DNA from: Planctomycetales bacterium
GTDB taxonomy: Bacteria > 4484-113 > JAFGCY01
Assembly: GCA_022646745.1 (NCBI GenBank)
Contig: CP060262.1
Location: 1,350,001-1,382,000, forward strand
DNA length: 32,000 nt
Reading direction: 5' to 3'
Shown here: piece by piece, positions 5,746 through 22,112 of the stretch
How positions within the stretch are numbered: the first letter of the stretch is position 1
How the letters are laid out: each line of letters opens with the position of its first letter
Program-made: the position numbers and the translations under genes
The notes under the pieces: model-generated
What the model was told of the DNA's origin: nothing
Databases searched by the model: none
Seen by the model: only the letters and a program-made list of their open reading frames with translations

Positions 5746-8394
5746 TCACTCACCCCAGTGGTAACCGACTGCAGCGGCGTCCGCTTCCGTGATCAATCCG
5801 TCCAGGTCGGAATCGGCGAACACCGTCCAGTCCGGGTCATCCGATGACATTCCCACACGTGTGCGGATGAAGTCCAGGTCGGCCTGGTTCACCTGGCCGT
5901 CCGCGTTGGCATCGCCCGGCTGGCTGAAGATCCACAGCGGGATCTCGCGGATGGCTCCGGCTTCACTTCCATTGAAGGGTCTGATTCGCAGCAGCGCGAT
6001 GCGGTTGCCAAGTGCTGACAGGGGAATGCTGGCTGGGAAGTTGGAGCCCGTGTCGATGCTCTCAATATGGATGTCCTCGCTGCCGGAGTTGTCAAACGGT
6101 GCAAGGTCCAGTTCGTAATGCACCGCATCAGAACCTGTTGCTCCGGGCAGCGAAAGCTCCAGGTCGGGAACGCCAGCGGCTTCCCCGAGGAGCTGCCAGG
6201 CCTGCAGCCCGATGAATCCGCTGTTCGCGGACGCAGCCTGGCCACCCTCCCGCTGCAGTGCATTGTCAATCCAGGCACCGGGCAGGTGTGTATCCTCCCC
6301 GCTGCCAGCACCGTCTGATTCCAGCATGACCACCACATGCAGGGATTCACCGGCAAACGGTGAGAGATCCAGTTCGAACTGCTGCATCTCCTGCAGGCCA
6401 CTGAGTGCCGCCGGAAGCTCAGGCCCTTCAAATGTCAGCTGGCTGAAGCTCAGTCCGTTGTCAGTTGTGGCCAGGAAGCGCAGGAAGTCCCTGTCCTGCT
6501 CCAGGTTGCAGGCCGCCGATACCGACAGTGAAGGCTGCACCCTGCTGGAGAGGTCAATGCGGCGGCTTACGAGCAGTTCAGTACTCCATGCCCCGTAGCC
6601 AGACTGGCCGGACACCTGCGTGGCAGCCTGGAAGCCTGCCCCGCTCAGCAGCTGCCACTGGGTGCCGCCGCCGCTGCGAAGATCACCAATGTCCCAGCCC
6701 ATCGGTCCGAACTGCCGAAGCCGTGCCAGCAGGTCGTCGGAGCAGCCTGATGAGGGCAGTGAGCAGAGCAGGTTCAATCCAGTGTAGAAGTCCTCGCCAA
6801 AGCTGGCCAATCCCGTGCCACTGTTGTCAATCACCACAGGCAGGCTGCATTGCACAGTGCTCGTGGCATTGCCGGCGCGGATCACCAGCTCATGTGCACC
6901 ATCCGGCAGCATCGTCGTATCAATGGTGACACTTGCCGGTGCATCTTCGGCCCGGGCCAGCTCCATCCCATGCGCGCTGGCACTGAGCCAGTCCGCCTCG
7001 CCGATCACAAGCGGCTGCAGCTCCAGCATGCTGGACTGGGTCAGCTGGCCCAGCTGCGGTGCGCTGATTGACAATCCATTCAGCTTGTCAAACGCGGCCG
7101 CAATATCCAACCGGGGCACCGGATGCTCACCGAAGCCGGTGGTAGGCGCTCCGCTTGAGACCAGCAGCTCGCGCAGCTCAGCGGGAGTCAGGGTCGGGTC
7201 CTCGCTCAGCAGCAGTGCCGCCGCCCCGCTCACGAAGGCCGTGGCGTAACTGTTGCCGAAACCGGGCGAGACGTAGTCATCGTCGCTGTCCTTCCAGCAG
7301 CTCTTGAGGAACACCCCGGGGGCGGCGATGTCGATGTAGTCGCCGTAGCCGCACAGCTCCGGTACCCGCGCATCCAACGCATCTGTAGAGCCGACGGACA
7401 GCGCCGTGCCATAGGCGGCGGGATACCAGGGGAAGTCATTGTCCTCATTGCCAGCGCTGCAGACCAAAAGCACGCCCTTCTCCTCGAGGATGCGGCACAT
7501 CTCCTCCTCCAGCGGATTGGGGATCTTGCTGGCCCAGGAGTAGTTGATCACCTTCGCCCCGAGATCGGCGGCGAGCAGGGCGCCTTCGACGAGCTGTGCT
7601 CTGGAAGCTGAGAGATTGTATGAAACTCTAATTGGCAGTAGTTGACAATTACTAGCTACTCCAACTATTCCTATTGAGTTATTGGCCTGTGCTCCAATCA
7701 GACCAAAAATGTAAGTGCCATGACCATTGATGTCTTCAGGTAGACTGTCATTATCAATCAAATCAAATTTCACAGTTGGATAGTCGTTGATTAGTGTATT
7801 GTATTGACCCTGCAATTCTTGATGCTGGTAGTTAATGCCTGTATCGATTACAGCAATTGATGGTGGTTGATTTAATGGATTATTCCAAACTCCATCGAAG
7901 CCACAGTGAATTTGCCCCCACATTGGATGATAATCGGTCGCGGGGACACCTAGCGAATCCAGCCAATCAGGATCGTTGAAACCTGATGACATTGCAAAAC
8001 TATGCGTGTCAGGTAACAACTTAAATTTTTCACTTGAACAATAACTCTCACAAAAACTAGATAAGTTGTGTTTTTCTGAAAACGATATTCGAATAAATCC
8101 TAACAGATACTTGGTGAAGTCAATATCAATGGTACCCGCGTAATTGTCGACTGTCGTGCGTAACTCCTCCTCATGTAAAGCCTCAAAATTGCTACTACTC
8201 AGAATCACGCTACACTGTAGCTGAGTGTCTGCATAAACAGATGCATTGGCAATTGCTATCGTATTATCAACAGTGTGCGTTGTGGGCGAGCTACATGACA
8301 CATTCCAAGCCAAACTGAGCGGGCAAAACAAGGCTAGAAAAATTACTTTTTCAACATTCACATTTGCTACTCTAGCTGAACCACCTCCAACCAT
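5746..8394 (-). CDS. Subtilisin-family (S8) serine protease with large beta-rich middle region and C-terminal dockerin-like repeat
   Basis: 882 aa. Asp motif IAVIDTGINY, His motif NGHGTYIFGL, oxyanion SAGNEDN, Ser motif GNSYATAFVSGAAALLL. C-terminal GDANADGQVNQADLDFI ... DSDLDGLITEADAAAV. N-terminal hydrophobic signal KVIFLALFCPLSLAWNVSC. The exact start is uncertain: no clear SD precedes ATG 8394, and the ORF overlaps the fibre gene by 28 nt. Confidence 0.85.
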   Translation of the reverse strand: MVGGGSARVANVNVEKVIFLALFCPLSLAWNVSCSSPTTHTVDNTIAIANASVYADTQLQCSVILSSSNFEALHEEELRTTVDNYAGTIDIDFTKYLLGFIRISFSEKHNLSSFCESYCSSEKFKLLPDTHSFAMSSGFNDPDWLDSLGVPATDYHPMWGQIHCGFDGVWNNPLNQPPSIAVIDTGINYQHQELQGQYNTLINDYPTVKFDLIDNDSLPEDINGHGTYIFGLIGAQANNSIGIVGVASNCQLLPIRVSYNLSASRAQLVEGALLAADLGAKVINYSWASKIPNPLEEEMCRILEEKGVLLVCSAGNEDNDFPWYPAAYGTALSVGSTDALDARVPELCGYGDYIDIAAPGVFLKSCWKDSDDDYVSPGFGNSYATAFVSGAAALLLSEDPTLTPAELRELLVSSGAPTTGFGEHPVPRLDIAAAFDKLNGLSISAPQLGQLTQSSMLELQPLVIGEADWLSASAHGMELARAEDAPASVTIDTTMLPDGAHELVIRAGNATSTVQCSLPVVIDNSGTGLASFGEDFYTGLNLLCSLPSSGCSDDLLARLRQFGPMGWDIGDLRSGGGTQWQLLSGAGFQAATQVSGQSGYGAWSTELLVSRRIDLSSRVQPSLSVSAACNLEQDRDFLRFLATTDNGLSFSQLTFEGPELPAALSGLQEMQQFELDLSPFAGESLHVVVMLESDGAGSGEDTHLPGAWIDNALQREGGQAASANSGFIGLQAWQLLGEAAGVPDLELSLPGATGSDAVHYELDLAPFDNSGSEDIHIESIDTGSNFPASIPLSALGNRIALLRIRPFNGSEAGAIREIPLWIFSQPGDANADGQVNQADLDFIRTRVGMSSDDPDWTVFADSDLDGLITEADAAAVGYHWGE

Positions 8395-9434
8395 TCAAGG
8401 TGAACATTTGTATTGCCAACATTTGTTGCCGATGAAGTTCCCTGAATTGTTAGCGTGATGAATAGATTGTCAACACCAGATCCTAAGGATAGATCGCCAC
8501 TGCTGATAATTGTCCAGGTATCATCAGTGAGTGTGCCAATGAGATTGGTGCTTGATGCAACCAAACTTCCGCCCATGTCATTAATGGCGAGGTAAATCGA
8601 ATCAAGACGATCTGTGTCGACAACTTTCATGTGAGCTCTGAGAATTGCAGTGTTGCCAACCTGGCGTGCTGAAAGTGAGATGCATAACTGAAGTCCAGAA
8701 ACGATACTTCCGGTTATCTGCGTTGATGTCCAAGAAAGTATTAGAGCGTTATCGAGAATGATGCATGGTCCTAATGAAGTATCAAAAGTAGGATCAGAAT
8801 TGGTTTGAATTGATAAGCTAGCAGGTGAAGAACCTGTTGGGTATTCCTTTATGACCCACGGCAGGTTGATTTCGTTGTTGCCGCTTACGCTGTCACGGCT
8901 GCCGGCTGCCGGGAAGACCTGGCGGTGGACCACCTTCGTGCGCTCGTCAACGTAGTCCTTGTTGGTCAGGTCGTTGTCATTCGTCGGAGTGGCCGGGGTC
9001 TGGGGCGCGGTCGAGAATGTCTTCAATCCGGCGATGGCCTGGTTGCCGCTGGTGCGCACCACCGTGCTGTCCACCGCGAACTCCTCGCTCGCCAGACTGA
9101 GCCCGTCGCCAGCCGTGTAGTCCGGCGAATGCACGTCTATCTCGCTGGCCAGCTCATCCTGTGTGACCGTCGCCGCGCCGCTGCCGGTGATCGTGATCTC
9201 CCCGTCCAGCATCGGGTTGCCACTGCCGCCGGCGAGGCCTGTCACGAAACTCTCCGGCAGCGCTGGGTCATTAGTCACCCCGCCGCCACCCGCCGTCGAG
9301 CCTCCGCTGGACAGCGGCGCCGCCGCGCTGCCGCCCAGTGTGTCGCGCTGCTCCAGCGCCTGTTCAGTACGCCTGCGCGCATCAATCGCATCCCCGAGGC
9401 TGCCCGTCTGCTTCATCCTCCGCCTGATCGTCAT
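8367..9434 (-). CDS. Tail fibre / receptor-binding protein
   Basis: ORF 8367..9590 trimmed to ATG 9434. That start has GGAGGAG upstream and an ATGA overlap with the stop of the upstream gene. The protein has a Gly-rich N-terminal region and the DLTNKDYVD motif common in tail fibres. Its C-terminal ~190 aa lie in AT-rich DNA. It is the last gene of the tail module. Confidence 0.7.
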   Translation of the reverse strand: MTIRRRMKQTGSLGDAIDARRRTEQALEQRDTLGGSAAAPLSSGGSTAGGGGVTNDPALPESFVTGLAGGSGNPMLDGEITITGSGAATVTQDELASEIDVHSPDYTAGDGLSLASEEFAVDSTVVRTSGNQAIAGLKTFSTAPQTPATPTNDNDLTNKDYVDERTKVVHRQVFPAAGSRDSVSGNNEINLPWVIKEYPTGSSPASLSIQTNSDPTFDTSLGPCIILDNALILSWTSTQITGSIVSGLQLCISLSARQVGNTAILRAHMKVVDTDRLDSIYLAINDMGGSLVASSTNLIGTLTDDTWTIISSGDLSLGSGVDNLFITLTIQGTSSATNVGNTNVHLEWLEVVQLE

Positions 9435-11422
9435 TGCGTCTCCTCCGCCAGATAGTCCGTGCCGCCGATCACCGTCGCCCGCGGCGTATGCTCCACGCGC
9501 TCCACCAGCGCACTGACCGTGTTGCCAGCGCGATCCGTGCCTTCCACCGTCTGCCACAGCCGGATGCGCGGATCCGGCAGGCTGCGCCACTCGATTCCCG
9601 AGAGCTGCCTGAGGCTTTCCGCCAGCAGGTCGGTGGCCCGGTCCTGCGCCAGAAATTCATTGCCATCGAAGTCCGTGAACAAGGTGCGGTGCCTGCCGCC
9701 GAGCCTGGCCCAGAGCAGCGGGTGGTTGCGGATCAAGCGGTCGGTGAAGCCATCACCGTCATGGTCCGAGCTGTAGGTGTACTCCGTCGGCGGCATTGCC
9801 AGCGGGTCGATCTCGCGCACCACGCGGTATGTCTCCTCGCAGTACAGCTCCAGCTCCGCCAGCCCGATGCTCGGGTCGGACTGGTTGTCAAAACCATGCT
9901 TGTAGGCCCCGAGCTGCACCCGCAGGTAACGCAAGCGGGGCATCGTGATTTCATCCGGCCCGATTTCCAGCAGGCTGTGCGGCTCGAATCTGCCCTGCGC
10001 CAGCGGTGACAACAGGCGCCAGTCCAGGCCGTCAATGCTCGCCAGCACGCGGATCCCCGGCCAGAACAGGCCCTGGTGCCCGGCGGCACTGTTCAGGTTG
10101 CGGCTGCCCGGCATTACCGCCCGCAGGCGCTGCACGCGGCGCACTTCGCCGAGGTCGAACTGCATGAACCCATACCAGGAGTCGTAGAAGCCCGTGCCGC
10201 CATTCTCACTCGCCGCCAGGTGGTGCAGTGAAGCTCCGCGGCTGGTATCGCCATCGCACAGGAGCGGTGAGACTGCCGCGAAGGAACTGTCCGCGCCGAC
10301 ATTCAGCCCGTCCCAGCTGAACCAGTCTCCCTGAGTGGATATGTCACTGGCCACAGCCGTATCCGCCAGTACATTCACCGGCCGTTCCGACTTCCCGCTG
10401 ACAACCACCCGGCTGTACAGTGCGGAAATGTCACGTGGACGGCCACGCTCAGAGGCAGATAACAATAATGTGTCCGCCGTCTGCTGCTGCTCCACCAGGC
10501 GCAGCACGAACTTCGCCGCCTGCGGGTCATACCACAGCCTGAGGTTCGCCTGGTTGGCATCCCGCAGCCGCCTGAACAGTGCGCTGACGCTGCCCTGCCA
10601 GCTGATCGCACCGGCCGGAGACAGCCCGAGATCCGGTATGTCCAGCTCCGGGTCAGTCCGCCCCGGCCCGCCCTCGCTAGCCGGATACCTCAGTGCCGTG
10701 CGGTACACCTCCGCGAGGTCCAGCGTGCCCTCGATGTAACAGCGCACGCCGCTCAGCCAGTAGCTGTTGCCAGCCGTGTCCTCGAGGATGCTGAGCGTCC
10801 CGCCCGTCAGGTTGACCTGGTAATGCGAGGGCGAGACCTCAAGCGTCATCGCCGAGTCGTACCACAGGCGGATCTCGCCGGGCACGAAACTGCGCCGCCG
10901 CGTGCCGGGGTTGGCATCCTGGTTGAAGGCCGGGTCGCTGCCGCCGCTGTACGTGAAGCCGTAAATGCTGCCGAAGGCTCCACCGTTGACAAGCGACAAC
11001 TGCCTGACTGCGACCTCCGCCGTCTCATCCGGGCTCATTGCGATGTCGCATTCCGTCTCCGCCAGCAGACAGGACCAGTCGAGTGCCCTGAGCCGGATCA
11101 ATCCCTCGGACGGGTCCAGCTCGGTCACACGGCCGCGGAACAGCACTTCGCTTTCCGCGCCGATGGTCGCCGTCAGCTTCAGCTCAGACAACAGGCGCAG
11201 CGGGTTGCCCGCATCATCCGGGTCGGCCCAGTCCATTGCAGCATCAGGCACCTCGGCACGCAGGCGCGCGGCCCCGGAGGAATCATGCAGCAGGCGAAAA
11301 TCGGACAGAGGCAGCTCCACCCAAGCCATGTCGTCGGTCAGATCGGTGCGTGCCTCCAACTTCCAGCCCAGCAGCCGGCCGGGCCGCTTCAGTTCAGTTG
11401 TCGCCGCAGATGTGAATCCCAT
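9431..11422 (-). CDS. Tail hub / Tal-like baseplate protein with discoidin (F5/8 type C)-like carbohydrate-binding domain
   Basis: 663 aa, positioned after the Dit-like gene. Domain pattern MQFDLGEVRRVQRLRAV ... IRVLASIDGLDWRLL ... LRYLRVQL ... IGLAELELY. ATG 11422 has GGAG 6 nt upstream. Confidence 0.65.
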   Translation of the reverse strand: MGFTSAATTELKRPGRLLGWKLEARTDLTDDMAWVELPLSDFRLLHDSSGAARLRAEVPDAAMDWADPDDAGNPLRLLSELKLTATIGAESEVLFRGRVTELDPSEGLIRLRALDWSCLLAETECDIAMSPDETAEVAVRQLSLVNGGAFGSIYGFTYSGGSDPAFNQDANPGTRRRSFVPGEIRLWYDSAMTLEVSPSHYQVNLTGGTLSILEDTAGNSYWLSGVRCYIEGTLDLAEVYRTALRYPASEGGPGRTDPELDIPDLGLSPAGAISWQGSVSALFRRLRDANQANLRLWYDPQAAKFVLRLVEQQQTADTLLLSASERGRPRDISALYSRVVVSGKSERPVNVLADTAVASDISTQGDWFSWDGLNVGADSSFAAVSPLLCDGDTSRGASLHHLAASENGGTGFYDSWYGFMQFDLGEVRRVQRLRAVMPGSRNLNSAAGHQGLFWPGIRVLASIDGLDWRLLSPLAQGRFEPHSLLEIGPDEITMPRLRYLRVQLGAYKHGFDNQSDPSIGLAELELYCEETYRVVREIDPLAMPPTEYTYSSDHDGDGFTDRLIRNHPLLWARLGGRHRTLFTDFDGNEFLAQDRATDLLAESLRQLSGIEWRSLPDPRIRLWQTVEGTDRAGNTVSALVERVEHTPRATVIGGTDYLAEETQ

Positions 11423-11425
11423 TTG

Positions 11426-11941
11426 CTACTCCGTCCAGGGCCGTGCTGGGCTGGCCGCCGTATAACTACCCACGCTGTCGAAGTTGGCAAAGCTGCCGTC
11501 CTCCACAACATGGAACAGCGCGATATGCGGCAGGCCATTGTCAGCCTGCATCCCGAGATCGGCGGCGATTCCCTCCGGCAGGGCAGTCAGGCTGCCGCGC
11601 CAGGCCAGGTCGCGGCTGATTGAGATTCCGTCCGTAGCCTCGCCCGTGAACTCGCTGAAGATCACCAGTTCCGAGCGCTGCAGGTAGGCGCGCTCCAGCC
11701 AGTCCGCCACGCAAAGCCTGGTGGTAGCCGCCGCCGAGTTGGCAATGCTGAGCTGGAAGGGCCACAGTTCCAGCTCAAGCTGCACTACCCAGGCCTGCTC
11801 ACCGCTTTCCAGCCGGTGCACCAGGCCGTACAGGTCGCTTGCCTCCCTGAACGGTCGTGAGAACTTCGGCCTGACGGCGCTGCCGCTCAGCGTCAGGTGG
11901 TCGGACTGCGATTGCCAGATGCGGATGCGCGATGTGCTCAC
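11426..11941 (-). CDS. Distal tail protein (Dit)-like
   Basis: 171 aa. Assigned by position only, between the tape measure and the hub. GTGA overlap with the upstream stop. Confidence 0.4.
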   Translation of the reverse strand: MSTSRIRIWQSQSDHLTLSGSAVRPKFSRPFREASDLYGLVHRLESGEQAWVVQLELELWPFQLSIANSAAATTRLCVADWLERAYLQRSELVIFSEFTGEATDGISISRDLAWRGSLTALPEGIAADLGMQADNGLPHIALFHVVEDGSFANFDSVGSYTAASPARPWTE

Positions 11942-12576
11942 AGCTCAGCTCCCGGCCACAGGCCCTGCGCCGCATTCTCCTCCAGCAGGCGGCTGGCAAC
12001 ACGCGCGCTAATTACATCCTCGGCCCCGCTGCGGTAATCAAGTTCCACCGTGAAGGCCGGCCCGCGCGGCACGGCGCGTCCACCGAACAGGCGCGAAGCC
12101 GGGTTGAGTGCGAAGCCGAGATCCGTCACGGAGGGGAAGTTGACGACGCGTGCCTGCACCTCATTCGCTACCTGCACCGGCTGGCGCTTGCGCAGCAGCC
12201 GGTCCGCCAGCAGGCCGATGCCGGCCCCCAGCAGACCGCCGAGGATCCCGCCTCCTCCGCTGCCGCCACCAAGTGCGCGAGTCAGGCTGCCCGTGATGCC
12301 CTGGGTCAGCTTCGCAATCATGCTGCGCAGCGACTTCTGCAGCTCGGCGATGAATGGCGCCATGAGTGTGCGCGTCGACCCCGCCTGGCGCTGCCGCAGC
12401 TCAGCCCGCGATGTGCCGCCGGATGTCGCACTGGCAGCGCGCAGCGGCTCCAGCCCGCGCCGCAGCTCATCGCGCCAGCGTTCCAGCTGACCGCTCAGCT
12501 GCTCGGTGGATGCGCGCGCCTGGCCGAGGCTGCCCGCCAGCCGGTTCAGTGCCATCCGTGTCGTCTCAGTTGCCAT
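11938..12576 (-). CDS. Putative tape measure protein, unusually short (212 aa)
   Basis: Positioned after the chaperone pair. Helical N-terminus, then a Gly-rich hydrophobic segment GGGSGGGGILGGLLGAGIGLLADRLL. GGGGAGGA SD 5 nt upstream of ATG 12576. Confidence 0.5.
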   Translation of the reverse strand: MATETTRMALNRLAGSLGQARASTEQLSGQLERWRDELRRGLEPLRAASATSGGTSRAELRQRQAGSTRTLMAPFIAELQKSLRSMIAKLTQGITGSLTRALGGGSGGGGILGGLLGAGIGLLADRLLRKRQPVQVANEVQARVVNFPSVTDLGFALNPASRLFGGRAVPRGPAFTVELDYRSGAEDVISARVASRLLEENAAQGLWPGAEL

Positions 12577-12841
12577 GACTGTCCTCCCCCGCCGGATGCC
12601 TCCGGTGGAATGTGTCCCTCAGCGCATTGCTGCGCAGCTCGATCCCGCGCAGGGCCCGGCGCAGCTCCCGCTCATCCGTGAACGGGGCCGACAGCAGCCT
12701 GCGCCGCTCCGCCTCCAGCTCGTCCTGCGCTTCCCCATGCGCGATATGCAGCAGGCGGCACTGCACTTCCTCGCTGCCCATCCTGGCAATCTCCGCGCCA
12801 CCGTGTCCATGTGCGCGCAGTTTCAGCTCCAGCTCATGCAT
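12566..12841 (-). CDS. Tail assembly chaperone, downstream (-1 frame) part, lambda gpT-like by position
   Basis: 91-aa ORF in the -1 frame relative to 12844..13293. That frame is open across the junction in my hand translation. Confidence 0.4.
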   Translation of the reverse strand: MHELELKLRAHGHGGAEIARMGSEEVQCRLLHIAHGEAQDELEAERRRLLSAPFTDERELRRALRGIELRSNALRDTFHRRHPAGEDSHGN

Positions 12842-12843
12842 GC

Positions 12844-13293
12844 TCAGCTGTGCGGAACCTGGCTGGGGTCCGCCGGCTGTTGCGCATGCTGCCAGAGCCG
12901 CGCCAGCGCGCTGGAAAAATCCCGCAGGCCCGCCGGCTCATTGAAGTTCAGCTCAAGTGCCGCCGCTGCCAGCTCCAGCACGCTGCCGTGTTCCCAGCGT
13001 GACAGCTCCGCCTCGTCCAGCCCGCTGCACAGCGAGGCCAGCTTCAGCACCAGCTGCGGCGCGCTGCCAAGTTGCTTGAGCAGCTCATCGCCGCCATCGA
13101 TACCGCCTTCCGGCAGGCTGCCGACAAGTGTGCAAAACTCCTGCCAGAGCAGCTCAAAGCTGATCCAGTCCAGCCGCCTGAGTTGCACATGCCGCCCGTT
13201 GCCAAGCTGGATGTTGACTTGCCGTGGCAGCTCCAGCACGGCGTGGCTGGCCTGCTGCATCGTATCCACCTCTCTCTTCCTTCTCCTGCTCAC
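12844..13293 (-). CDS. Tail assembly chaperone, lambda gpG-like by position
   Basis: 149-aa acidic protein between the tube and tape-measure genes. GTG 13293 lies 4 nt after AAGGAGG; an alternative ATG is near 13260. Confidence 0.45.
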   Translation of the reverse strand: MSRRRKREVDTMQQASHAVLELPRQVNIQLGNGRHVQLRRLDWISFELLWQEFCTLVGSLPEGGIDGGDELLKQLGSAPQLVLKLASLCSGLDEAELSRWEHGSVLELAAAALELNFNEPAGLRDFSSALARLWQHAQQPADPSQVPHS

Positions 13294-13309
13294 ATGACCT
13301 CCTTATTCA

Positions 13310-13390
13310 GGTTGCTGGGTGCAGGTTGCAGGGTGCAGAAGAACCTGAATGCTGTTCCCTCTATGCAACCCGCAACCATTAACCTGCAAC
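13310..13390. repeat. Inverted arrays of 7-nt tandem repeats forming a long imperfect hairpin
   Basis: Left arm GGTTGCT GGGTGCA GGTTGCA GGGTGCA (13310..13337). Right arm ATGCAAC CCGCAAC CATTAAC CTGCAAC (13363..13390). This is the only sizeable intergenic gap in the particle operon. Confidence 0.8.
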
Positions 13391-13395
13391 CTGTC

Positions 13396-14244
13396 CTACG
13401 GCAGCCCCGGGCCGAACTGCTCAAGCACGCCGAAGGCCGTGCGCAGCAGGCCGACATTGCCATTCGCCGGGTCGTACATGCAGTCCCAGTCAAGCGCGAT
13501 GCCCTCGCCGAGCTGCTCTTCACTGAATGCGATGCCACTGCCCGGCATCACGGTGCTGACCCGGCTGAACTCGAACTCCAGCCCGGTCTCCATCCACGTG
13601 GACGGATCGCCGCCGTCCGTTGCCAGTTGCTGCAGCAGCACGCGGTGGTAACGCTCACTTGCATCCGGCGCGCCGATGCTCGTCGTGCTCGTGGCCTGGC
13701 GGCGCACACTGGCGATGAGCACCACGGGCTGGCCCTCGCCAATCGCTGTGCCCACACTGCGCCGGATCAGCCCCCGCTCGCTGTCAATCTCGTAATCCGC
13801 GGGGGAGCCGTATGTCACCAGCCCGTCGTAGGACCTGACCACCGGGGCCGGGCTGGCTTCCAGTGCCCAGGGGCGCAACAGCTCTGTCCAGTCACTGGCA
13901 TGCAGGTGCAGCACCTCGCTGTACTGCTCAACCCCCGCCGTGCTGCTGCTGACAGCTGCGCCCGGCCCGGCCAGCAGGCCGAGCGCCAAGGGAGAGGCCT
14001 ATTCCAGCAGGCGGAAGCTCAGCGAGTAACGCAGCGAGCGGCAGAACTGCGCCACCGGCTGCAGGGTGCCGCGCTGGCTGCCCAGCCGGTCGAGCTTCTC
14101 GCCCTCGACGGAGAATTCCGCATCCGCCACACGACCAAGCGGCTGCCAGGCCCCGTTGCCATTGTCCGCCAGCGGATCATGGATCGACAGCCGCGCGCCG
14201 CCGATGGTATGGAAGGGGTGGTAGCTGTAATTCGCCCCGCTCAT
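13396..14244 (-). pseudogene. Tail tube (major tail) protein gene interrupted by one in-frame TAG
   Basis: ORFs 13999..14244 (ATG start, GGAGGTG SD) and 13396..13989 (TTG start, no SD) are in the same frame. They are separated only by TAG 13999-14001 plus three codons. Read-through text is ...SLSFRLLE*ASPLALGLLAG..., which resembles a continuous tube-protein motif. Confidence 0.6.
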
Positions 14245-14657
14245 GCATTCACCTCCTGTGCGCTGTCAGCGATCGCCGTCAGCCCGAGTTCCGTCACCGA
14301 GCTGGCCAGCACCGGCCCGCCGGCCAGGGAGGCCGGTCGGGGGTAGCTGGTCTGCTGCCAGCGGATGCTGCGCAGTTCGGGCTGTTCGAGGCAGAAGCGG
14401 CTGATGCGGGCCCGGATCGCGGTGCTGAGGCTGCCCAGCTGGTTCATCAGGTCCGCCGGACGCGCTCCCGCCACCACCACGCGCAGCTCTATGCGTTGTT
14501 CAGAGACGGGATACCGTCCGCCCTGCTCGACCAGGCGCAGCACCGCCGCCGGATGCGCCGCCGGGTCCAGCCCGTCCGAGCGCACCTCCCGCAGTCCCAG
14601 CCCACCCGCTTCCTGCTGCAGCCAGGCAGTTAGCCTGCTGAAGATCGTCGTTGCCAT
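14241..14657 (-). CDS. Neck / tail-terminator-type head-tail joining protein
   Basis: ORF 14241..14666 (GTG start). ATG 14657 sits 8 nt after GGGAGG. Assigned by position between the connector and the tube gene. ATGA overlap with the tube gene start. Confidence 0.45.
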   Translation of the reverse strand: MATTIFSRLTAWLQQEAGGLGLREVRSDGLDPAAHPAAVLRLVEQGGRYPVSEQRIELRVVVAGARPADLMNQLGSLSTAIRARISRFCLEQPELRSIRWQQTSYPRPASLAGGPVLASSVTELGLTAIADSAQEVNA

Positions 14658-14670
14658 CTCCGTCACCTCC

Positions 14671-15114
14671 CTAGAATCCGCTCAGCTTGCGCTCGTCGAA
14701 CACGCTCTCGCTGTCCTGCGTGGAGGACCAGCCCGCCATCAGCGGCTGGCCGGGGTCGCCCCCGAGCCGCGCGTTGCCATTGGCAACCTCGGCCATGAAG
14801 CTCTCGACGGCCTCGCGCGATGCACTGAGCGGGTTGAGGCTGTCATCCACATAGCGACGCCGGTAGAGGAAGTACAGTGCGAGCGTGGCGTTGATGCGTT
14901 CCAGCCCGGCCATCACCAGCGGGTCCGCCAGGTCGACGCGCCCCATCAGGTAGCTGTCTACCAGGCTGCCGCCGTCACCGATGGCCTGCTGGATGATGTC
15001 GCGGGTGAGCGCGTCGTCAATGTCCGGCAGCGGGTTGACGTCATCCGCCAGCCCGGCCAGCACCTGCGGGTCCAGCCGCTTCTCGAGGTCCTCAATGCTC
15101 GTGTAGACCGCCAT
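14671..15114 (-). CDS. Head-tail connector protein, Mu gp36/DUF1320-like
   Basis: 147 aa. MAVYTSIEDLEKRLDPQVLAGLADD ... QQAIGDGGSLVDSYLMGRV ... LALYFLYRRR matches my recall of the DUF1320 pattern. It follows the capsid gene directly. Confidence 0.65.
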   Translation of the reverse strand: MAVYTSIEDLEKRLDPQVLAGLADDVNPLPDIDDALTRDIIQQAIGDGGSLVDSYLMGRVDLADPLVMAGLERINATLALYFLYRRRYVDDSLNPLSASREAVESFMAEVANGNARLGGDPGQPLMAGWSSTQDSESVFDERKLSGF

Positions 15115-15124
15115 CGTTCACCCC

Positions 15125-16039
15125 CTAGGCCGAACCGTCGCTGCCGACCGCCATCTGCCACAGGCCGTAGCCCGCGCCGCAGCGGCTGCGCACGCCGAAC
15201 TTGTAGGCATCGGCGCTGAACACGTACTCGTCATCGGGGCGCGTCACCGCGCTGAACTCCGGCCTCACGCGCCACTGGAACAGCAGCGGGCGCACCGGGT
15301 ACTGCGTTGCCAGCACGAACCAGTGGTTGGCGGGCACCCAGGGGCTGACCTGCAGGTTGAGCATGCCGCTCAGCCCATTGCCATCCGGCTTCTCGAGGTC
15401 CGTGCCGCCGCTGAGCACGATGCCCGTCGAGTTGAGCAGTTCACGTGCGGTGAAGTAGTTGTCGGGGCCGACGAGCAGGGTGTCCGGCAGCAGGCCAAAG
15501 GGCTTGCCGTGGTCATCCCTGAACGCCATCATGGTCTCAATCGCCAGCTTCAGGCTGGTGCTGCCCAGCTTGTCGGCCATCTTGTTGACCTGTGTGCCGC
15601 TTTCCCCCTGCTTATGGTCATCCGCGAAGAAGGCCTTGCCGTCATAGCCCGTGTCGGTGAAGCCGTTGGCCAGCAGGCCGACCACCAGCTCGTCCGGGTG
15701 GCTGGCCGCACGCAGCGCCAGCTCCTCGATGCGCGGCTTGAGCTGCGCCAGTCGGTCATCCTCGAAGGTCTCGCGGTCCACCTCGATCGAGGCCTCGAAG
15801 CGACGGTTGGCGATTTCGTAGTCGTTGGTGCGCAGCGCACCGGGCACGCGTTCGTCCGTCCATTCGCGCATCGCCGGCACCGCTCCGAGCCAGTTCCAGC
15901 TCTCCTTCGAATTGCTGCTGTCAACCACCGTTGACAGCTTCGCGTAGAGCGGGTCAGCGCCCTGGAAGCCGCGCTCGAACAGCGCGCGGAATCCCGTGAA
16001 TGAGGCTTCAAGGAAGTCTCGTGTTACCAGTCTTGCCAT
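15125..16039 (-). CDS. Major capsid protein, Mu gpT-like
   Basis: 304 aa. LYAKLSTVVDSSNSKESWNWLGAVPAMREWTDERV ... YEIANRRFEASIEVDRETFEDDRL matches recalled gpT-family motifs. Strong SD (TAGGAGGGG) before ATG 16039. Confidence 0.8.
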   Translation of the reverse strand: MARLVTRDFLEASFTGFRALFERGFQGADPLYAKLSTVVDSSNSKESWNWLGAVPAMREWTDERVPGALRTNDYEIANRRFEASIEVDRETFEDDRLAQLKPRIEELALRAASHPDELVVGLLANGFTDTGYDGKAFFADDHKQGESGTQVNKMADKLGSTSLKLAIETMMAFRDDHGKPFGLLPDTLLVGPDNYFTARELLNSTGIVLSGGTDLEKPDGNGLSGMLNLQVSPWVPANHWFVLATQYPVRPLLFQWRVRPEFSAVTRPDDEYVFSADAYKFGVRSRCGAGYGLWQMAVGSDGSA

Positions 16040-16051
16040 CTGTGTCCCCTC

Positions 16052-16483
16052 CTAGTGCAGGTCGATGCGCAGCCAGACGTCGGTGCCGTCGAAACCCTCG
16101 AGCCGGCCCGCCTGGATGTCATTGGTGACCGTGGACACCACGGCCACGGTCTGGTCGTCAACGATGTACAGCGGCTGGCCGAGGTCGGCCTGCGTGATGC
16201 TGCCGCCCTTGGCGAAGCTGAACACGCCGCGCGCCATCACGCGCACGTTCACATCACCGTCGCTGCCGGAGCTGTTGTCAGCGTCCTCGATCGCCACGCC
16301 GATGAAGGTCTGGCCAGCCGTGTCACTGCCGGGCACGGCATGTCCCGTGCTGTCGGCGCAGACGATACCGCCCTTGAAGATCTGTGTGGATCCCTTCACC
16401 TTGTGCGCCGTCACGGTTCCTTCGCGGTGGCGCGTGTACCTGCTCTCAGTCAGTGCCGTCATCCGTCCCTCCCGTCCGCTCAT
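16052..16483 (-). CDS. DUF2190-like beta-rich head protein (decoration/cement-like)
   Basis: 143-aa ORF. The more likely start is the second ATG at 16462 (GGGAGGG 4-5 nt upstream). Positioned between the protease/scaffold and capsid genes. Confidence 0.45.
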   Translation of the reverse strand: MSGREGRMTALTESRYTRHREGTVTAHKVKGSTQIFKGGIVCADSTGHAVPGSDTAGQTFIGVAIEDADNSSGSDGDVNVRVMARGVFSFAKGGSITQADLGQPLYIVDDQTVAVVSTVTNDIQAGRLEGFDGTDVWLRIDLH

Positions 16484-16895
16484 CGCGGATGTTCACATAT
16501 TCAATGTCCGACAGCCCGAGGCTGCCGGCGATCTCACGCTCGAACTCGCTGAGCTGCGTAAACAGCTCATGCCCCGCCGCCAGTTCCGTGTCCAGCTGCT
16601 GCACCGGTAGGCTGTGCAGCAGGCCGGTCAGGCAGTCCAGCGCGCTTTGCTCACTGCCATCCGCCAGCAATACCGCATCGGTGTTGCCAGCCGAGAGGCA
16701 GAGCAGCAGCCCGCGCAGCCCGCTGGCCTCCATTCCCGGTGTCAGGCGGCCAGCAATGCGCAGTTCCGACAGCAGTCCGTCCACCGCGACTTCATTGTCA
16801 CGGCGGCGGTAGTCCGCCAGCTCGCTTGCCAGCCGGCGGTTCTCTTCCCCGAGGCGCAGGATCTCACCCGCGCCAGCTGTGTTGCCAGAATCCAT
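16446..16895 (-). CDS. Possible nested scaffold protein (Mu gpZ-like) from an internal in-frame start
   Basis: In-frame ATG at 16895-16893, preceded by GGAGG (16905..16901) at 5-nt spacing. It would yield a 149-aa helical, acidic C-terminal product. Confidence 0.3.
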   Translation of the reverse strand: MDSGNTAGAGEILRLGEENRRLASELADYRRRDNEVAVDGLLSELRIAGRLTPGMEASGLRGLLLCLSAGNTDAVLLADGSEQSALDCLTGLLHSLPVQQLDTELAAGHELFTQLSEFEREIAGSLGLSDIEYVNIRDERTGGTDDGTD

Positions 16896-17363
16896 CTCTT
16901 CCTCCATCAGAACACTGAGCAGCCCGGCCCCGCTGTCTGCGGCCAGCACCGGTTCGGGCAGGGCCGGCAGGCCACGCACCGCCGGAGCGCGTGCCCCGAG
17001 CAGTGCCAGGCCGCGCAGGTAGGGCCCGCGCCCGTCCAGCTCCCGCCAGACCTCCGCCGAGCGTGCCGGCCAGCGGCCCTCCGTGATCTGCGTTGCCAGC
17101 CAGTGCGGCAGGCCCTCGATGTCGGCGCGCAGGTGCATGCAGTCGAAGCGCAGGGCGGAGATGCTGCCGAGTGCCGGCCCACTGTCGCTGTGGTCCAGGT
17201 TGATCGTTGCCAGGTGGTACTGCGGGTCGTAGTTCGCCGCGATCTCAGCCAGCTGCTGTTCGCTGAATTCCACCGGCCGGCCCTGCATGTCGCGGTAGCT
17301 GCCCGGCCGCAGGATCGCCACGTCCCGCAGCTTCAGCGGGCTTCCCGTTGTTGCCATCGTCAC
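16446..17363 (-). CDS. Prohead protease / scaffold fusion, Mu gpI-like
   Basis: 305 aa. N-terminal VAILRPGSYRDMQGRPVEFSEQQLAEIAANYDP ... INLDHSDSG fits the recalled Mu-like protein I family. The C-terminal half is helical and acidic (scaffold-like). GTGA overlap with the portal stop. Confidence 0.7.
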   Translation of the reverse strand: MTMATTGSPLKLRDVAILRPGSYRDMQGRPVEFSEQQLAEIAANYDPQYHLATINLDHSDSGPALGSISALRFDCMHLRADIEGLPHWLATQITEGRWPARSAEVWRELDGRGPYLRGLALLGARAPAVRGLPALPEPVLAADSGAGLLSVLMEEEMDSGNTAGAGEILRLGEENRRLASELADYRRRDNEVAVDGLLSELRIAGRLTPGMEASGLRGLLLCLSAGNTDAVLLADGSEQSALDCLTGLLHSLPVQQLDTELAAGHELFTQLSEFEREIAGSLGLSDIEYVNIRDERTGGTDDGTD

Positions 17364-18655
17364 TGTCCACCTCCCTGTGGTTTGCCGCCGTGCGGCAGGC
17401 TGCGTCCGTAGCGGGTGCAGAGCTGCTGCGGGTCCTGCTCGATGCCCTGCGCGGCGAGGAAGGCATCGATTTCCAGCTCGAGCCGGAGGTCGCGTTCCAG
17501 TGGCGCATCCAGCTCGAGGCGCGGCAGGCGGCCAAGCGCCTGCGGCATGTTCAGTTCCACGATCCAGCGCAGCAGTGTGCTCGTGATGATGCCGGCCAGC
17601 GCATTGGCATCGCTTCTGATGATGTCGGCGCGCACGTTCTCATGCACCTGGCCGAGTGCGTAGCTGCCCCGTCCGCCTTCGGACTGCGTGGTGAGAGTCT
17701 GCCCCAGCAGCGCCTTGCTCATCTCGCGGTTGCAGAACTCCAGCAGCTCGAGGTAGGTCTCCACGCTGCCCGAGCGTGCGCCCTCCAGCAGGCTGAGTTC
17801 CACGCCCTCGGGCAGCACGATGCCGGTTTCCTGCTGCAGGCTGCCGACGATCTTCCTCAGCTGCCGGCGCTCCTCAATGCCGGTGGACGGCGGATGCGTT
17901 GCCACCGTGGTCGGGCTGCCGAACTTCTCGCAGTACACCACCCAGAAGCGCAGCACCTGGCGCTTGAACCAGCTCAGCCACCACACGCATCTCAGCGCCG
18001 GCAGGCCGTAGGGGTTCTCGTGGCGGCCATAGGGCGCGAACACGATGAAGCGCCTGTCCGGCAGCGGCACGCCGCGCACCGGCTGCTCGCGGGTCAGGAG
18101 GCGCAATGAACTGTCGGCCGCGAACACGAAGCGGCGTGGGTGGCGCGACTTCACGCTGCAGGGCAGCAGGTACTCGCCGGAGAGCGAGCCATTATCAATC
18201 CGCTGCCGCCGCCAGAGCACCTCGCTGACACTTATGCCATAGGGCACCGCGTCCAGCAGCTCACTGAGCAAGTTGTCAGCCCCGCCCGGCCCGTCCAGGC
18301 AGCCGCTGCCCTCGAACAGCTGTGCGCATAGCTCGGCGGCCTGCCGGGCCAGCACGCTGTCGTCCGCTGGTACGACGCGCCGCTGCCAGCCGAGCACCGC
18401 GGCCCGCCGCTGGCCGACGAGCGAGGAGAGATGGGCATCCTTGTCCAGTGCCTCCTCGAACAGTCCCCAGGGCCAGTCATAGGCCGCCGAGGGCTGCTTC
18501 GCCGCCAGCAGCGGGTCACGGTTGGGGCGCACCCCGAGCCAGCCTGCCAGCGGTTCGTAGAGGTCGCTGGCAACGCCTGCAATCTCCCGACCGCCCGGCA
18601 CGGCAACGGATTGTTCACGGCGCGGCTGCGCCTTCTTCCTCCCTGAAAAGAGCAT
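17360..18655 (-). CDS. Portal protein, Mu gp29/DUF935-like
   Basis: 431 aa between the terminase and protease genes. TAGGAGGGAAGG precedes ATG 18655. The region LGQTLTTQSEGGRGSYALGQVHENVRADIIRSDA resembles DUF935 portals (from recall). Confidence 0.75.
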   Translation of the reverse strand: MLFSGRKKAQPRREQSVAVPGGREIAGVASDLYEPLAGWLGVRPNRDPLLAAKQPSAAYDWPWGLFEEALDKDAHLSSLVGQRRAAVLGWQRRVVPADDSVLARQAAELCAQLFEGSGCLDGPGGADNLLSELLDAVPYGISVSEVLWRRQRIDNGSLSGEYLLPCSVKSRHPRRFVFAADSSLRLLTREQPVRGVPLPDRRFIVFAPYGRHENPYGLPALRCVWWLSWFKRQVLRFWVVYCEKFGSPTTVATHPPSTGIEERRQLRKIVGSLQQETGIVLPEGVELSLLEGARSGSVETYLELLEFCNREMSKALLGQTLTTQSEGGRGSYALGQVHENVRADIIRSDANALAGIITSTLLRWIVELNMPQALGRLPRLELDAPLERDLRLELEIDAFLAAQGIEQDPQQLCTRYGRSLPHGGKPQGGGQ

Positions 18656-18664
18656 CCTTCCCTC

Positions 18665-20242
18665 CTAGAATCCGCTCGTGAAATGGCCGCTGCCATCATC
18701 GTCATCCGCGGGCCCCGTGCCCGCCAGAACCGCCATGCCGCGCCGCCTCCCGGCAGCCGTGGCCAGCTTGCCAGCCATGCCTCCCGCCTGCTGCGGGGCG
18801 ACCTCCATCGCCCGGGCGAGGGCATCAAGCTGGTCGTCATGCGCACCCGCCGGGTAGTGCAGCGCTTCCTCGAGGAAGGCCGCCAGCCAGTGCGCCGAAT
18901 CGGGGATTGCTAAGCGCCCACGCTGCACCTGCACCGCCATCGCATCAAGCCGCAGCTCCTTTCTGGAGTGCGCCGGCAGCGGTACGGCGGGCAGGCCACG
19001 GTCCAGCGCGGCCTGGGAGAGCACCGCCTGGTAGGCCGTGTTCTCGATGCCGATGCGCTGCGGGCGCCACAACTCATTGAGCCGCTCCAGCAGCGCAATC
19101 TGCTCGGCGAAGCGCAGGCGGGCCCGCTGCATGTCCAAGAGGAACAGGCGCTGTCCCGCGTCGTCAGTGCCGAGCACCGCCGCGCAGAACCAGTCGTGCC
19201 TGTCCCCCTGGCCGATGGCGGGGTCCACCCCGATGCTGATCCGCAGGCGTTCGTTGCCAAGGAAGATCCCGTCCGGCCTGATGGCAACACCGCCTGCGGC
19301 ATAGCGCGCGAAGTCCCCCTCCCTGAAGACCTGCTGCGCCAGTGAGACCGGACGGTTCATGTATTCCTGGCTGAAGGCACTGTGCCCGATCTCCTGGCGG
19401 CGCTGCTCCAGACGCTCGACGGTCCAGCGCTGCGGCCACAGGGGCCGGCCCTCGTCGTCCAGTGCTGCCAGCCGGACGCTCTGCCAGTGCGGCAGGCTGC
19501 CCTCGGCGATGCGCTGCATCAGGCGCGCCAGCGCGGAGTCGTGGTGCAGCAGCGTGCCGAGCCAGACCAGGCTGCCGGAGGTGATGTCCAGCGCATTGAC
19601 AAGCGCGTGGTCCAGCCAGTGGCTGAGCCGGTCGCGCTGTTCCGCACTGCGCACCATGTCGTCATCCTCCGGGTCGTCAAGCACCACGAGGTCCAGCCGG
19701 CTGCCGTTGGAGAGTTGGCCGCGCACGCGACCGAGCGCGCCGATGGTTGCCAGGCGCTGCCCGCCGGCGAGGATCAGCTGGCTGTCATTCCAGCTGACCT
19801 TCGTGCCACGCGCATCCAGCGCCGGGGCGATCCTTTCGCCGAACAGGAAGTGCAGCAGGCGGTTGCGCTCCAGCTCCGTGGTGATCATGCGCAGCCGGGC
19901 CTGGGCCTCCTCGCGGTTGGCGCAGACGATCAGGATGTTGCGCTTGTCCCCGCAGCAGAGCTGGTGCAGCACCAGCCCGAGCGTGCCGATGGTGGTCTTA
20001 GCATGCTCACGGGGCAGGGCACCGGCCAGCCTGTGCCCGGGCTGCATCGCCTCAAGCAGTTGCGCTGCCAGCTCGTGCTGGAAGCGGCCAAAAGGCAGGC
20101 CCAGCAGATCCGGCAGGCAGACAGCGCAGAAGCGCAGCAGGTCGGAGCGCATCGACCGCCGGGCCTGCTCACGCAGAATGGCGATCCGCGCATCAGCCGG
20201 CAACGGCCGGAAGGGGATGGGGACAGGAACGGAACTGGTCAT
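18665..20242 (-). CDS. Terminase large subunit
   Basis: About 525 aa. Walker-A-like ALPREHAKTT and Walker-B-like RLDLVVLDDPEDDD, with a C-terminal nuclease-like region. ATG 20242 overlaps the TGA of the upstream gene by 1 nt. The ORF track begins one codon earlier, at TTG 20245. Confidence 0.85.
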   Translation of the reverse strand: MTSSVPVPIPFRPLPADARIAILREQARRSMRSDLLRFCAVCLPDLLGLPFGRFQHELAAQLLEAMQPGHRLAGALPREHAKTTIGTLGLVLHQLCCGDKRNILIVCANREEAQARLRMITTELERNRLLHFLFGERIAPALDARGTKVSWNDSQLILAGGQRLATIGALGRVRGQLSNGSRLDLVVLDDPEDDDMVRSAEQRDRLSHWLDHALVNALDITSGSLVWLGTLLHHDSALARLMQRIAEGSLPHWQSVRLAALDDEGRPLWPQRWTVERLEQRRQEIGHSAFSQEYMNRPVSLAQQVFREGDFARYAAGGVAIRPDGIFLGNERLRISIGVDPAIGQGDRHDWFCAAVLGTDDAGQRLFLLDMQRARLRFAEQIALLERLNELWRPQRIGIENTAYQAVLSQAALDRGLPAVPLPAHSRKELRLDAMAVQVQRGRLAIPDSAHWLAAFLEEALHYPAGAHDDQLDALARAMEVAPQQAGGMAGKLATAAGRRRGMAVLAGTGPADDDDGSGHFTSGF

Positions 20243-22033: not shown

Positions 22034-22053
22034 GAGGCCAGGCTGTCAGCCGC

Positions 22054-22110
22054 CGGGATGCGGGATGCGGGATGGGGGATGTGGGATGTGCGATGAGCGG
22101 GATGCGGGAC
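22054..22110. repeat. Tandem heptamer array (CGGGATG-type)
   Basis: CGGGATG x3, then GGGGATG, TGGGATG, TGCGATG, AGCGGGATG and CGGGAC. It directly abuts the left REP copy. Confidence 0.85.
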
Positions 22111-22112
22111 AC

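Follow-up and report, generated by a model that had tools for sequence, protein, structure and literature searches.

An exchangeable fibre tip with a downstream partner gene is known from phage T4 (gp37/gp38), phage Mu (S-U and S'-U', in the G segment), phage P2 (H-G) and the R-pyocins (fibre plus chaperone), and in staphylococci the agr locus holds a hypervariable block that runs from the 3' part of agrB through the whole of agrD into the 5' part of agrC; the parts that it encodes have to fit one another, and it falls into discrete allele groups for which the matching has been demonstrated. In phage T5 the gene of the receptor-binding protein pb5 has an adjacent downstream neighbour that encodes Llp, a lipoprotein that binds the receptor FhuA and so prevents superinfection (PMC9586334), and the Rhs and contact-dependent inhibition (CDI) toxins have a conserved GC-rich core, a demarcation motif and a variable AT-rich C-terminal extension with a small open reading frame (ORF) (PMC7259588). 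Here we analyse a 32,000-nucleotide stretch of DNA from a Planctomycetales bacterium (GenBank assembly GCA_022646745.1, contig CP060262.1, positions 1,350,001 to 1,382,000; "the window"), in which an AT-rich patch bridges the 3' end of a predicted tail-fibre gene and the 5' end of a predicted S8 serine protease gene. We put the probability at about 0.7 that this patch is a block-replaced hypervariable specificity cassette, with stationary AT-rich composition, of a conserved ~15-kb phage-derived head-tail cluster, the host clade of which is a small clade of GC-rich uncultured bacteria. In every sampled lineage a different, mutually saturated allele lies between ...GNNEINLPW in the fibre and LVEGALLAADLGAKVINYSW in the protease, as one contiguous 1.22–1.28-kb block that encodes the β-sandwich head domain predicted for the fibre, and the signal peptide, pro-region and Asp-His half of the protease. 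The coordinates of the features are given in Table 1.

Table 1. Features of the fibre-protease locus and of its cluster (window coordinates; GC3, G+C fraction at third codon positions; aa, amino acids)
Feature	Position	Strand	Basis
Predicted tail-fibre / receptor-binding protein gene, 355 aa	8367..9434	-	ORF list, Pfam BppL_N, PHROG tail-fibre families, start context
Left border, 27 nt GGCAACAACGAAATCAACCTGCCGTGG, encodes GNNEINLPW	8856..8882	-	Codon-aligned borders of 8 loci; blastn break at 8855
Variable fibre tip, 162 aa, GC3 0.36	8370..8855	-	AlphaFold2, Foldseek, allele identities
Predicted S8 (thermitase-like) serine protease gene, 882 aa	5746..8394	-	Pfam, PDB alignment, AlphaFold2, Foldseek
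Variable protease head, 267 aa, GC3 0.34	7594..8394	-	GC3, codon-aligned borders, alleles
Right border, 60 nt encoding LVEGALLAADLGAKVINYSW, start of the helix after the His strand	7534..7593	-	Codon-aligned borders of 7 loci
GC-rich conserved protease body: Asn316, Ser382, β-sandwich domains, dockerin-like end	5746..7533	-	
Rest of the head-tail cluster	9431..20856	-	PHROGs, Pfam, gene tables of relatives

An earlier, sequence-only reading of the window had reported an abrupt fall in GC content between about 7610 and 8870, with 21 G+C in the 60 nucleotides of 7621..7680; the recount is exact and the fall is reproduced by each measure applied to it. Sliding-window GC drops from 0.63–0.67 outside to 0.36–0.46 between ~7600 and 8870, a maximum-likelihood fit with two breakpoints has its edges at 7605 and 8879 (GC 0.41 inside vs 0.65 outside, a gain of 113 nats over no break), and in-frame GC3 within the same two ORFs is 0.23–0.50 inside the patch vs 0.57–0.93 outside (~0.35 vs ~0.77 overall). 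The composition discontinuity is far beyond chance. Both ORFs had been said to stay open across the patch, and they do: given the patch's own base composition, the probability that the 162-codon fibre stretch and the 267-codon protease stretch would both be open by chance is ~4e-12, and the four non-coding frames of the patch hold 27–37 stops each (27–28 per frame on the opposite strand), which together show that the patch region is coding. The lengths first assigned to the two parts needed correction, from ~190 aa of fibre to 162 aa if the variable part is counted (or 197 aa if the count begins at KDYVD), and from ~260 to 267 variable aa of protease.

The evidence for exchange comes from relatives of the window, which represent about 10 lineages, all of them genome bins or metagenome contigs (the bins are labelled UBP7, "bacterium" or Planctomycetales). 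A search with the full-length protease found a protein, P0002, that is nearly identical from residue ~268 on and only ~40–45% identical before it, and nine or more related loci were found to carry the same ~15-kb head-tail cluster; the order of fibre and then S8 protease, which the sequence-only reading had expected of relatives, is kept in all related loci that are long enough to include both genes. Three of these loci, in genome bin "UBP7 HKST-UBA01" (L002, 91–96% DNA identity to the window), genome bin "UBP7 HKST-UBA03" (L003, ~78%) and a 1.87-Mb contig of genome bin AC1.30 (L004, ~78%), align with the window by blastn on both sides, and the alignments break at 8855 and ~7617. Each has its own patch, of 1224, 1266 and 1283 bp, respectively, with a GC content of 0.40–0.44 within flanks of 0.64–0.69. 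The same gene order and an AT-rich patch are also present in L005, L006/L007, L008, L012/L015 and L013, and within each ~20-kb locus the patch is essentially the sole low-GC segment and the main gap in homology.

The borders are the same to the codon. On the left side all loci have the GC-type codons of GGCAACAACGAAATCAACCTGCCGTGG (GGC AAC AAC GAA ... CTG CCG TGG, 8882-8856) and diverge from the very next codon, and on the right side GC-type codons resume at CTC GTC GAA GGC ... TAC TCC TGG (LVEGALLAADLGAKVINYSW, 7593-7534). Identity profiles of three close backbone pairs (window/L002, L003/L004 and L005/L006) are square wells with identical edges and no recovery at the fibre-protease junction. 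One continuous block covers the fibre tip and the protease head, as had been proposed, and a whole-block difference with the same two borders in three of three close backbone pairs is what an exchangeable cassette predicts. The proposal of a co-inherited, exchangeable fibre-protease cassette stands to that extent.

The alleles are diverged. Patch DNA identity is 44–52% (63% for L003/L004) vs 74–96% in the flanks, and at the protein level the tips are 29–55% and the heads 33–51% identical, in a star-like pattern that is unrelated to backbone distance; two allele classes that had been seen by eye (window/L006 vs L002/L003/L005) were rejected on the basis of this star-like identity matrix. Third-codon-position identity between lineages is 0.25 (the random value) in the patch, ~0.55 in the backbone and 0.74–0.82 in the ~30 codons by the borders, with 0.74–0.78 in the 60 nt of the right border. 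Divergence at codon positions 1 and 2 of the flanks is far below that at position 3, which indicates strong purifying selection there, and in the patch divergence is at least 3 times that at the third positions of the flanks, which holds for the closest pairs too. The variable head includes ~100 aa of the catalytic domain, with the Asp and the His, that are only 45–50% identical between alleles.

GC3 is 0.34 ± 0.05 in the tips (n = 8) and 0.37 ± 0.07 in the heads (n = 7), with a full range of 0.25–0.46, vs 0.75–0.77 ± 0.03 in the GC-rich parts of the same genes. A contrast of this kind within single genes excludes expression-linked codon selection as its cause. Because the alleles are mutually saturated at third positions and are nonetheless all AT-rich, AT-richness is a standing property of the slot and not the mark of one recent import, and because not one of the saturated alleles has shifted towards the composition of the host, the data also exclude one ancient import that then recovered in the ordinary way.

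Individual alleles are also stable. L001, an independent contig from ENA, is 99.94% identical to the window, including the 7594 junction, with one of its two mismatches in the patch, and L012 (ENA) and L015 (JGI) carry one allele and are 99.92% identical, with a single mismatch that lies outside the patch. The window allele recurs in the proteins P0141, P0142 and P0143 (from NCBI, ENA and Logan assemblies), in which amino-acid differences occur outside the head only, and the L002 and L006 alleles recur with unchanged heads as P0146 and P0150. Such unchanged recurrence in independent assemblies means that the alleles are the product neither of chimeric assembly nor of ongoing hypermutation.

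The fibre gene follows the gene of a 663-aa protein and is the last gene of the structural module before the protease gene. Its start is most likely the ATG at 9434, which makes an ATGA overlap with the stop of the 663-aa gene and is preceded by a GGAGGAG ribosome-binding site, and the GTG at 9590 that opens a longer ORF is probably not the real start. The protein has the Pfam BppL_N motif (E = 2.5e-9) and matches PHROG tail-fibre families; a search against cultured phages returned one weak phage match only, and no Pfam family matched the tip. The tip is exactly 162 aa long in eight full-length alleles, with a conserved scaffold. AlphaFold2 models it with confidence (pLDDT) values of 70–93 over residues ~200–355 as a β-sandwich (jelly-roll) that resembles a carbohydrate-binding module, and Foldseek matches the tip to CBM4, CBM36 and MAM domains and to distal domains of phage tailspikes, fibres and baseplate proteins. 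A tip profile search of 1.84 billion representative proteins found 107 clusters, which define a family of ~170 aa in which the domain is C-terminal in all cases. From the model and these matches the tip is presumed to be a receptor-binding domain, probably one that binds glycans, and the protein as a whole is predicted to be a phage receptor-binding tail fibre with a modular head domain.

The downstream protein is predicted from its residues to be a thermitase-like subtilase of peptidase family S8 whose complete catalytic set is split across the junction. It matches PF00082 with E = 4.6e-44 (aa 178–415) and aligns in the PDB with AK.1 protease / thermitase at 1e-32, with D184, H225, N316 and S382 in place (codons at 7843-7845, 7720-7722, 7447-7449 and 7249-7251); these four residues are invariant in the protease alignments, and NCBIfam gave subtilase matches below cutoff only. 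It had been stated that the catalytic Asp and His lie in the patch, the Ser in the GC-rich remainder and one junction inside the catalytic domain, and this is so: Asp184 and His225 are inside, the oxyanion Asn316 and Ser382 are outside, and the junction falls between His225 and Asn316. In order, the protein has a signal peptide with a lipobox-like Cys34 (codon 8293-8295), a pro-region of about 140 aa between the Cys34 segment and the S8 domain, the S8 domain itself, β-sandwich domains and a dockerin-like module (aa 826–876; the Dockerin_1 match, E = 0.0015, is weak). All eight of eight alleles have a hydrophobic N-terminal stretch that ends in x-[S/A]-C (LLGSC, LTSC, LYSC, GISC, STSC, ISSC, NVSC and MCAC), which suggests that the protease is a lipoprotein, although the NVSC of the window departs from the canonical lipobox and more than one start codon is possible for its protease. 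The alleles have a weakly conserved [TV]-[IV]-G-x-Y-x-V motif, which is the sole hint of an I9-like pro-domain. The 28-nt overlap of the two genes that had been described holds if the protease starts at ATG 8394, but with GTG 8361 as the start (as in the public call P0143) the two genes are separated by 5 nt; five related loci likewise have their protease start no farther than ~11 nt from the fibre stop.

Dockerin-like calcium-binding repeats (DYDQNG...DGDGNG...) were noticed at window 671-891, 3719-3942 and 24707-24939 in addition to those of the protease (5767-5919), and two of the frames with dockerin repeats open with lipoprotein-like N-termini (LLLCAAC and LLLVSC). In the company of these other lipoprotein-like proteins with dockerin-like modules the protease looks like a member of a host surface-protein set, and the repeats hint at a cohesin/dockerin-type surface display system in the organism that would include the protease.

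How does this locus compare with the systems described above? As in T4 gp37/gp38, Mu, P2 and the R-pyocins, a conserved shaft is followed by a variable, presumably receptor-binding C-terminal part, which would be exchanged together with the adjacent downstream gene by crossovers in conserved sequence. Unlike in those systems, the partner is the N-terminal third of an 882-aa lipoprotein-like subtilase and not a Tfa/gp38-type chaperone, the far border lies in a catalytic domain, and the GC3 contrast (0.35 vs 0.77) is extreme and common to all alleles; in addition, the invertase and inverted repeats of Mu are absent here. The lactococcal TP901-1 BppL and p2 ORF18 proteins resemble the fibre in having the BppL_N motif, here just before the junction, and a β-sandwich head after a conserved N-terminal part, but similarity to BppL covers only the 24-residue BppL_N motif, and the tip belongs to the separate ~170-aa family. 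We know of no protease partner of the lactococcal BppL/ORF18 proteins. With T5 pb5/Llp the locus would share an exported lipoprotein gene directly downstream of a receptor-binding protein gene, as both are predicted here, and a matched pair of which one member binds the receptor and the other neutralises it would be sensible in this locus as well; Llp is a small receptor-binding lipoprotein, however, the present protein is a protease of ~880 aa with no sequence relationship to it, and a role in exclusion would be pure inference. The switch from GC-rich to AT-rich DNA within one ORF at a conserved peptide, and a variable block that runs into the next gene, are as in the Rhs/CDI toxins, but the present alleles are homologous, of the same length and of one predicted fold, the downstream gene is not an immunity gene, and the whole is a virion structural module. 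As in agr, one hypervariable block with conserved flanks on either side reaches from the end of a gene into the start of the following one, although the quorum-sensing biology of agr is unrelated and the divergence here is star-like. Three features, then, are new: a partner that amounts to the first third of a lipoprotein-like subtilase and has its border within the catalytic domain, an AT regime that is stationary across at least eight saturated alleles, and the host clade.

The observations fit a mechanism in which homologous recombination in the conserved flanks would exchange alleles as whole blocks, with diversifying selection of the host-range type acting on the receptor-binding tip, and in which the composition of the slot would be stationary and not the fading trace of an import. 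AT-richness could then arise because diverged alleles escape the GC-biased gene conversion or selection that acts on the flanks and so reach an AT-biased mutational equilibrium. A reported link between recombination and GC content in bacteria (PMC4450053) fits such shielding, as does the universal excess of GC-to-AT mutations (PMC2936529). Less likely, alleles might be continually drawn from an unsampled AT-rich reservoir.

Several points weigh against the cassette interpretation. Tip and head are both hypervariable, yet their distances are uncorrelated in a Mantel test (r = 0.04, p = 0.44, n = 7), and the two may recombine independently and need not be specifically matched. Among the sampled loci no allele is present on two backbones and no two alleles are present on a backbone that is ≥99% identical; we infer block exchange from the rate arguments above. 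The sample is small and entirely metagenomic. The cassette can be lost, as L004 shows: its fibre tip and protease head (L004:8837-10119) are broken by many stops and frameshifts between intact flanks. The head itself (aa 1–262) is modelled with pLDDT below 50, which gives no structural backing to a role in targeting, and alignment places the parts that usually set substrate specificity in subtilases mostly in the conserved body. Finally, both causes of AT-richness are compatible with the data.

A separate 3.8-kb contig of the same AC1.30 bin encodes an intact fibre (P0152) whose tip is ~94% identical to the L003 allele; beside the broken L004 copy this points either to strains that differ at the cassette or to decay of one copy.

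We tentatively propose that the variation of the protease head reflects a match to the strain-specific surface structure that the tip also binds, in which case the protease could be a receptor-destroying, exclusion or envelope-opening enzyme. A competing explanation, which we consider unlikely though far from implausible, is that selection acts on the tip only and the head is swept along to the next conserved crossover site, the LVEGALLAADLGAKVINYSW-coding helix, with no functional link between the two. The uncorrelated distances and the location of most specificity elements (above) speak for such hitch-hiking, as do the intrinsically weak constraint on signal peptides and pro-regions and the fact that the right border is the most conserved 60 nt of the gene, with raised synonymous identity. 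On the other hand, AT-rich heads are found only in proteases that adjoin a fibre gene. The protease paralogues L009–L011 are stand-alone genes among housekeeping genes and have uniform GC, and the outgroup fibres L014 and L016, which have no S8 gene downstream, have uniformly GC-rich tips. The AT-rich slot and fibre-protease adjacency thus co-occur, and only in this clade, which favours matching of tip and head. Moreover, the protease start is tightly coupled to the fibre stop wherever both are visible, and divergence to 45–50% identity over ~100 aa of catalytic domain is more than linkage to a nearby selected site needs. In the two Bacillus-phage records that were inspected (Tsamsa and BMBtp16) the S8 genes do not adjoin fibre genes.

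In the outgroup locus L016 (L016:1639-6633) a 703-aa homologue of the 663-aa protein precedes a 494-aa fibre, the GC-rich tip of which belongs to the same family. The gene that follows, where the clade has its S8 protease, looks CHAP/amidase-like from an inspection of its motifs by eye, with no family search made, and by this comparison the clade protease sits in the position that a cell-wall hydrolase has there.

A second alternative places the evolution of the cassettes in low-GC relatives or phages, from which they would enter again and again by way of the conserved borders. The foreign-looking codon usage is common to all alleles, the raised synonymous identity by the borders is compatible with repeated crossovers there, and the thin coverage of the clade in public data (about 10 lineages) would leave room for such a pool. 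Against this, the homologues with related tips that were recovered are all in proteins or loci of GC-rich type (the members of the tip family from outside the clade that were inspected are Ala/Gly/Arg-rich), every locus keeps GC-type codons as far as the border codon and shows no AT-type flank of imported origin, and at least eight independent recent imports would be needed, none of them partly recovered to host GC. Searches made to find a donor or additional alleles gave the following results: patch DNA had no match among 50,697 phage records, an exact-protein look-up of the window protease and of P0002 returned no record, a scan of IMG/VR with the protease alignment found no relatives, and a scan of JGI metagenomes with protease patterns found nothing and with fibre patterns only L015 (the L012 allele) and distant fibres. 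Continuous supply from an AT-rich pool is improbable in our estimate. The combination of a set of alleles too diverged to recombine, whose GC3 has come to a mutational equilibrium of ~0.35, with a matched module of tip and surface-anchored subtilase for one strain-variable envelope structure, is a further reading of the slot, and we hold it to be similarly doubtful.

The sequence-only reading had explained the patch as a one-off import, in which a single foreign segment from a low-GC donor, where tip and head were already neighbours, recently replaced both gene ends. The sharp composition break and the atypical codon usage of the patch are what such an event would leave, and even the closest relative, L002, has a wholly different sequence in the slot. 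This explanation is now very improbable. However distant a relative is (flank identity 75–96%), it has an AT-rich patch of its own within the same borders (the 8–9 independent alleles of relatives are equally AT-rich), none of these mutually saturated alleles has partly recovered towards host GC, and no AT-rich donor lineage was found in protein, profile or DNA searches.

Still less probable is targeted, AT-biased hypermutation by a diversity-generating-retroelement-like or other local mutator. Identical sharp borders in all lineages and synonymous saturation even between backbones that are 92–96% identical could be read in this way, and the distant fibre homologue at L014 stands between two Avd-like genes. 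However, the window has no reverse transcriptase, template/variable repeat pair, border repeats or extra copies, identical alleles recur in independent samples with only one of three mismatches in the patch (two near-identical DNA pairs), and the variation affects all positions and includes insertions and deletions with no patterned subset of sites. Specifically, Pfam scans of the main window ORFs found no reverse-transcriptase domain and no invertase, the patch is not repeated elsewhere and has no silent cassette within the 32 kb (or within ~10 kb on either side in relatives), its borders have no inverted or direct repeats, and the window has no tRNA or Rfam element.

At L014 (L014:549-2449) the fibre homologue P0129, with its GC-rich tip, lies between two genes of the PF05635 / bAvd family. 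bAvd is an accessory protein of diversity-generating retroelements, and the same tip family may be diversified by another mechanism at that locus; its 3-kb contig has no template/variable repeat.

Four known kinds of variable system were considered as identities for the patch and rejected. A diversity-generating retroelement target is contradicted by the missing reverse transcriptase and repeat pair and by variation that extends beyond adenines. An invertible or shufflon-type fibre segment (Mu Gin / P1 Cin) would have inverted repeats and an invertase, neither of which is present, and the opposite strand is closed by its stops in each frame (above). The downstream gene of a Tfa/gp38-type cassette would be a chaperone, and here it is the S8 protease, with no chaperone family found in Pfam, PHROGs or NCBIfam. 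An Rhs/CDI polymorphic toxin/immunity cassette does not agree with homologous tip alleles of 162 aa and one predicted fold, or with a protease downstream.

The likelihood that the patch is an assembly chimera, which the sequence-only reading had itself named as a possible flaw, or a decaying non-functional region is close to negligible, since, in spite of the metagenomic origin of the assemblies and the stops and frameshifts that fill the L004 patch, the same junctions recur in independent ENA, Logan, NCBI and JGI assemblies, the ORFs are intact in eight alleles with equal tip length in the full-length ones, conservation extends to the catalytic Asp and His and to the scaffold residues, and the tip folds confidently in the AlphaFold2 model.

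The ~15-kb cluster to which the two genes belong (5746-20856, minus strand) contains head and tail genes only, and host-type genes lie on both sides of it (1486-2391 and 21293-22844). Beyond the fibre and the protease its genes are those of a 204-aa ORF, a large terminase, a Mu-like portal, a protease/scaffold, a cement protein, a gpT-like capsid protein, Mu Gp36, small tail proteins and the 663-aa protein, and its structural genes are under purifying selection. Its flanks include genes of a LexA-like repressor, an IS200-like transposase and, downstream of the cluster, an EamA transporter, which L002–L006 keep as a neighbour, and there are no integrase, replication or lysis genes in the window. 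From this gene content the cluster looks like a domesticated, gene-transfer-agent-like element or an old defective prophage.

Some smaller features of the region were noted in passing. Moderately low GC (0.46–0.54) is also present at window 5061-5708 (plus strand), an NYN-domain gene beyond the protease that is common to L002 but not to L003 and L004, and at 21951-22844 (plus strand), the IS200-like Y1 transposase gene next to the LexA-like gene. A second small variable spacer of 90–142 bp (window ~13304-13393, L005:6054-6195, L003:6216-6334) breaks homology in the tail-gene region; its GC is 0.44–0.50 in L005 and L003, where it adjoins the upstream side of the 663-aa gene, and in the window it is ~1.9 kb upstream. 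Right after the protease, L005 (11919-12239), L006 (11908-12213) and L008 (3156-3467) have a conserved ORF for a ~100-aa membrane protein, which has no homologue at that position in the window or L002.

The patch has a practical consequence for annotation, in that public protein records for this family begin at or after the junction. In seven public gene calls (P0002, P0003, P0005, P0006, P0141, P0145 and P0147) the protease starts at or after the junction and is 633–746 aa long, not ~870–890; these records are without the signal peptide, the pro-region and, in most, the catalytic Asp, and three are also without the His. In P0154 the public call cuts the fibre to a 188-aa fragment. Evidently, gene callers trained on the GC-rich genome reject the AT-rich patch and so truncate both genes.

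The locus provides a probable swappable host-range module that is defined to the codon, and with the signal peptide, pro-region and Asp-His part of an exported subtilase it gives the receptor-binding tip a partner not reported before, which suggests that cell-surface binding and proteolysis may be specified together. At least eight saturated alleles at GC3 ~0.35 inside genes with GC3 ~0.77 also allow a direct test of recombination-linked GC maintenance vs a foreign pool. If the combined reading of the slot, as a mutational equilibrium and a matched module, were true, it would show within single genes what keeps GC high in bacteria and why loci of hypervariable surface specificity are so often AT-rich, and the protease would be the cognate receptor-destroying, exclusion or envelope-opening enzyme of a domesticated, gene-transfer-agent-like particle.

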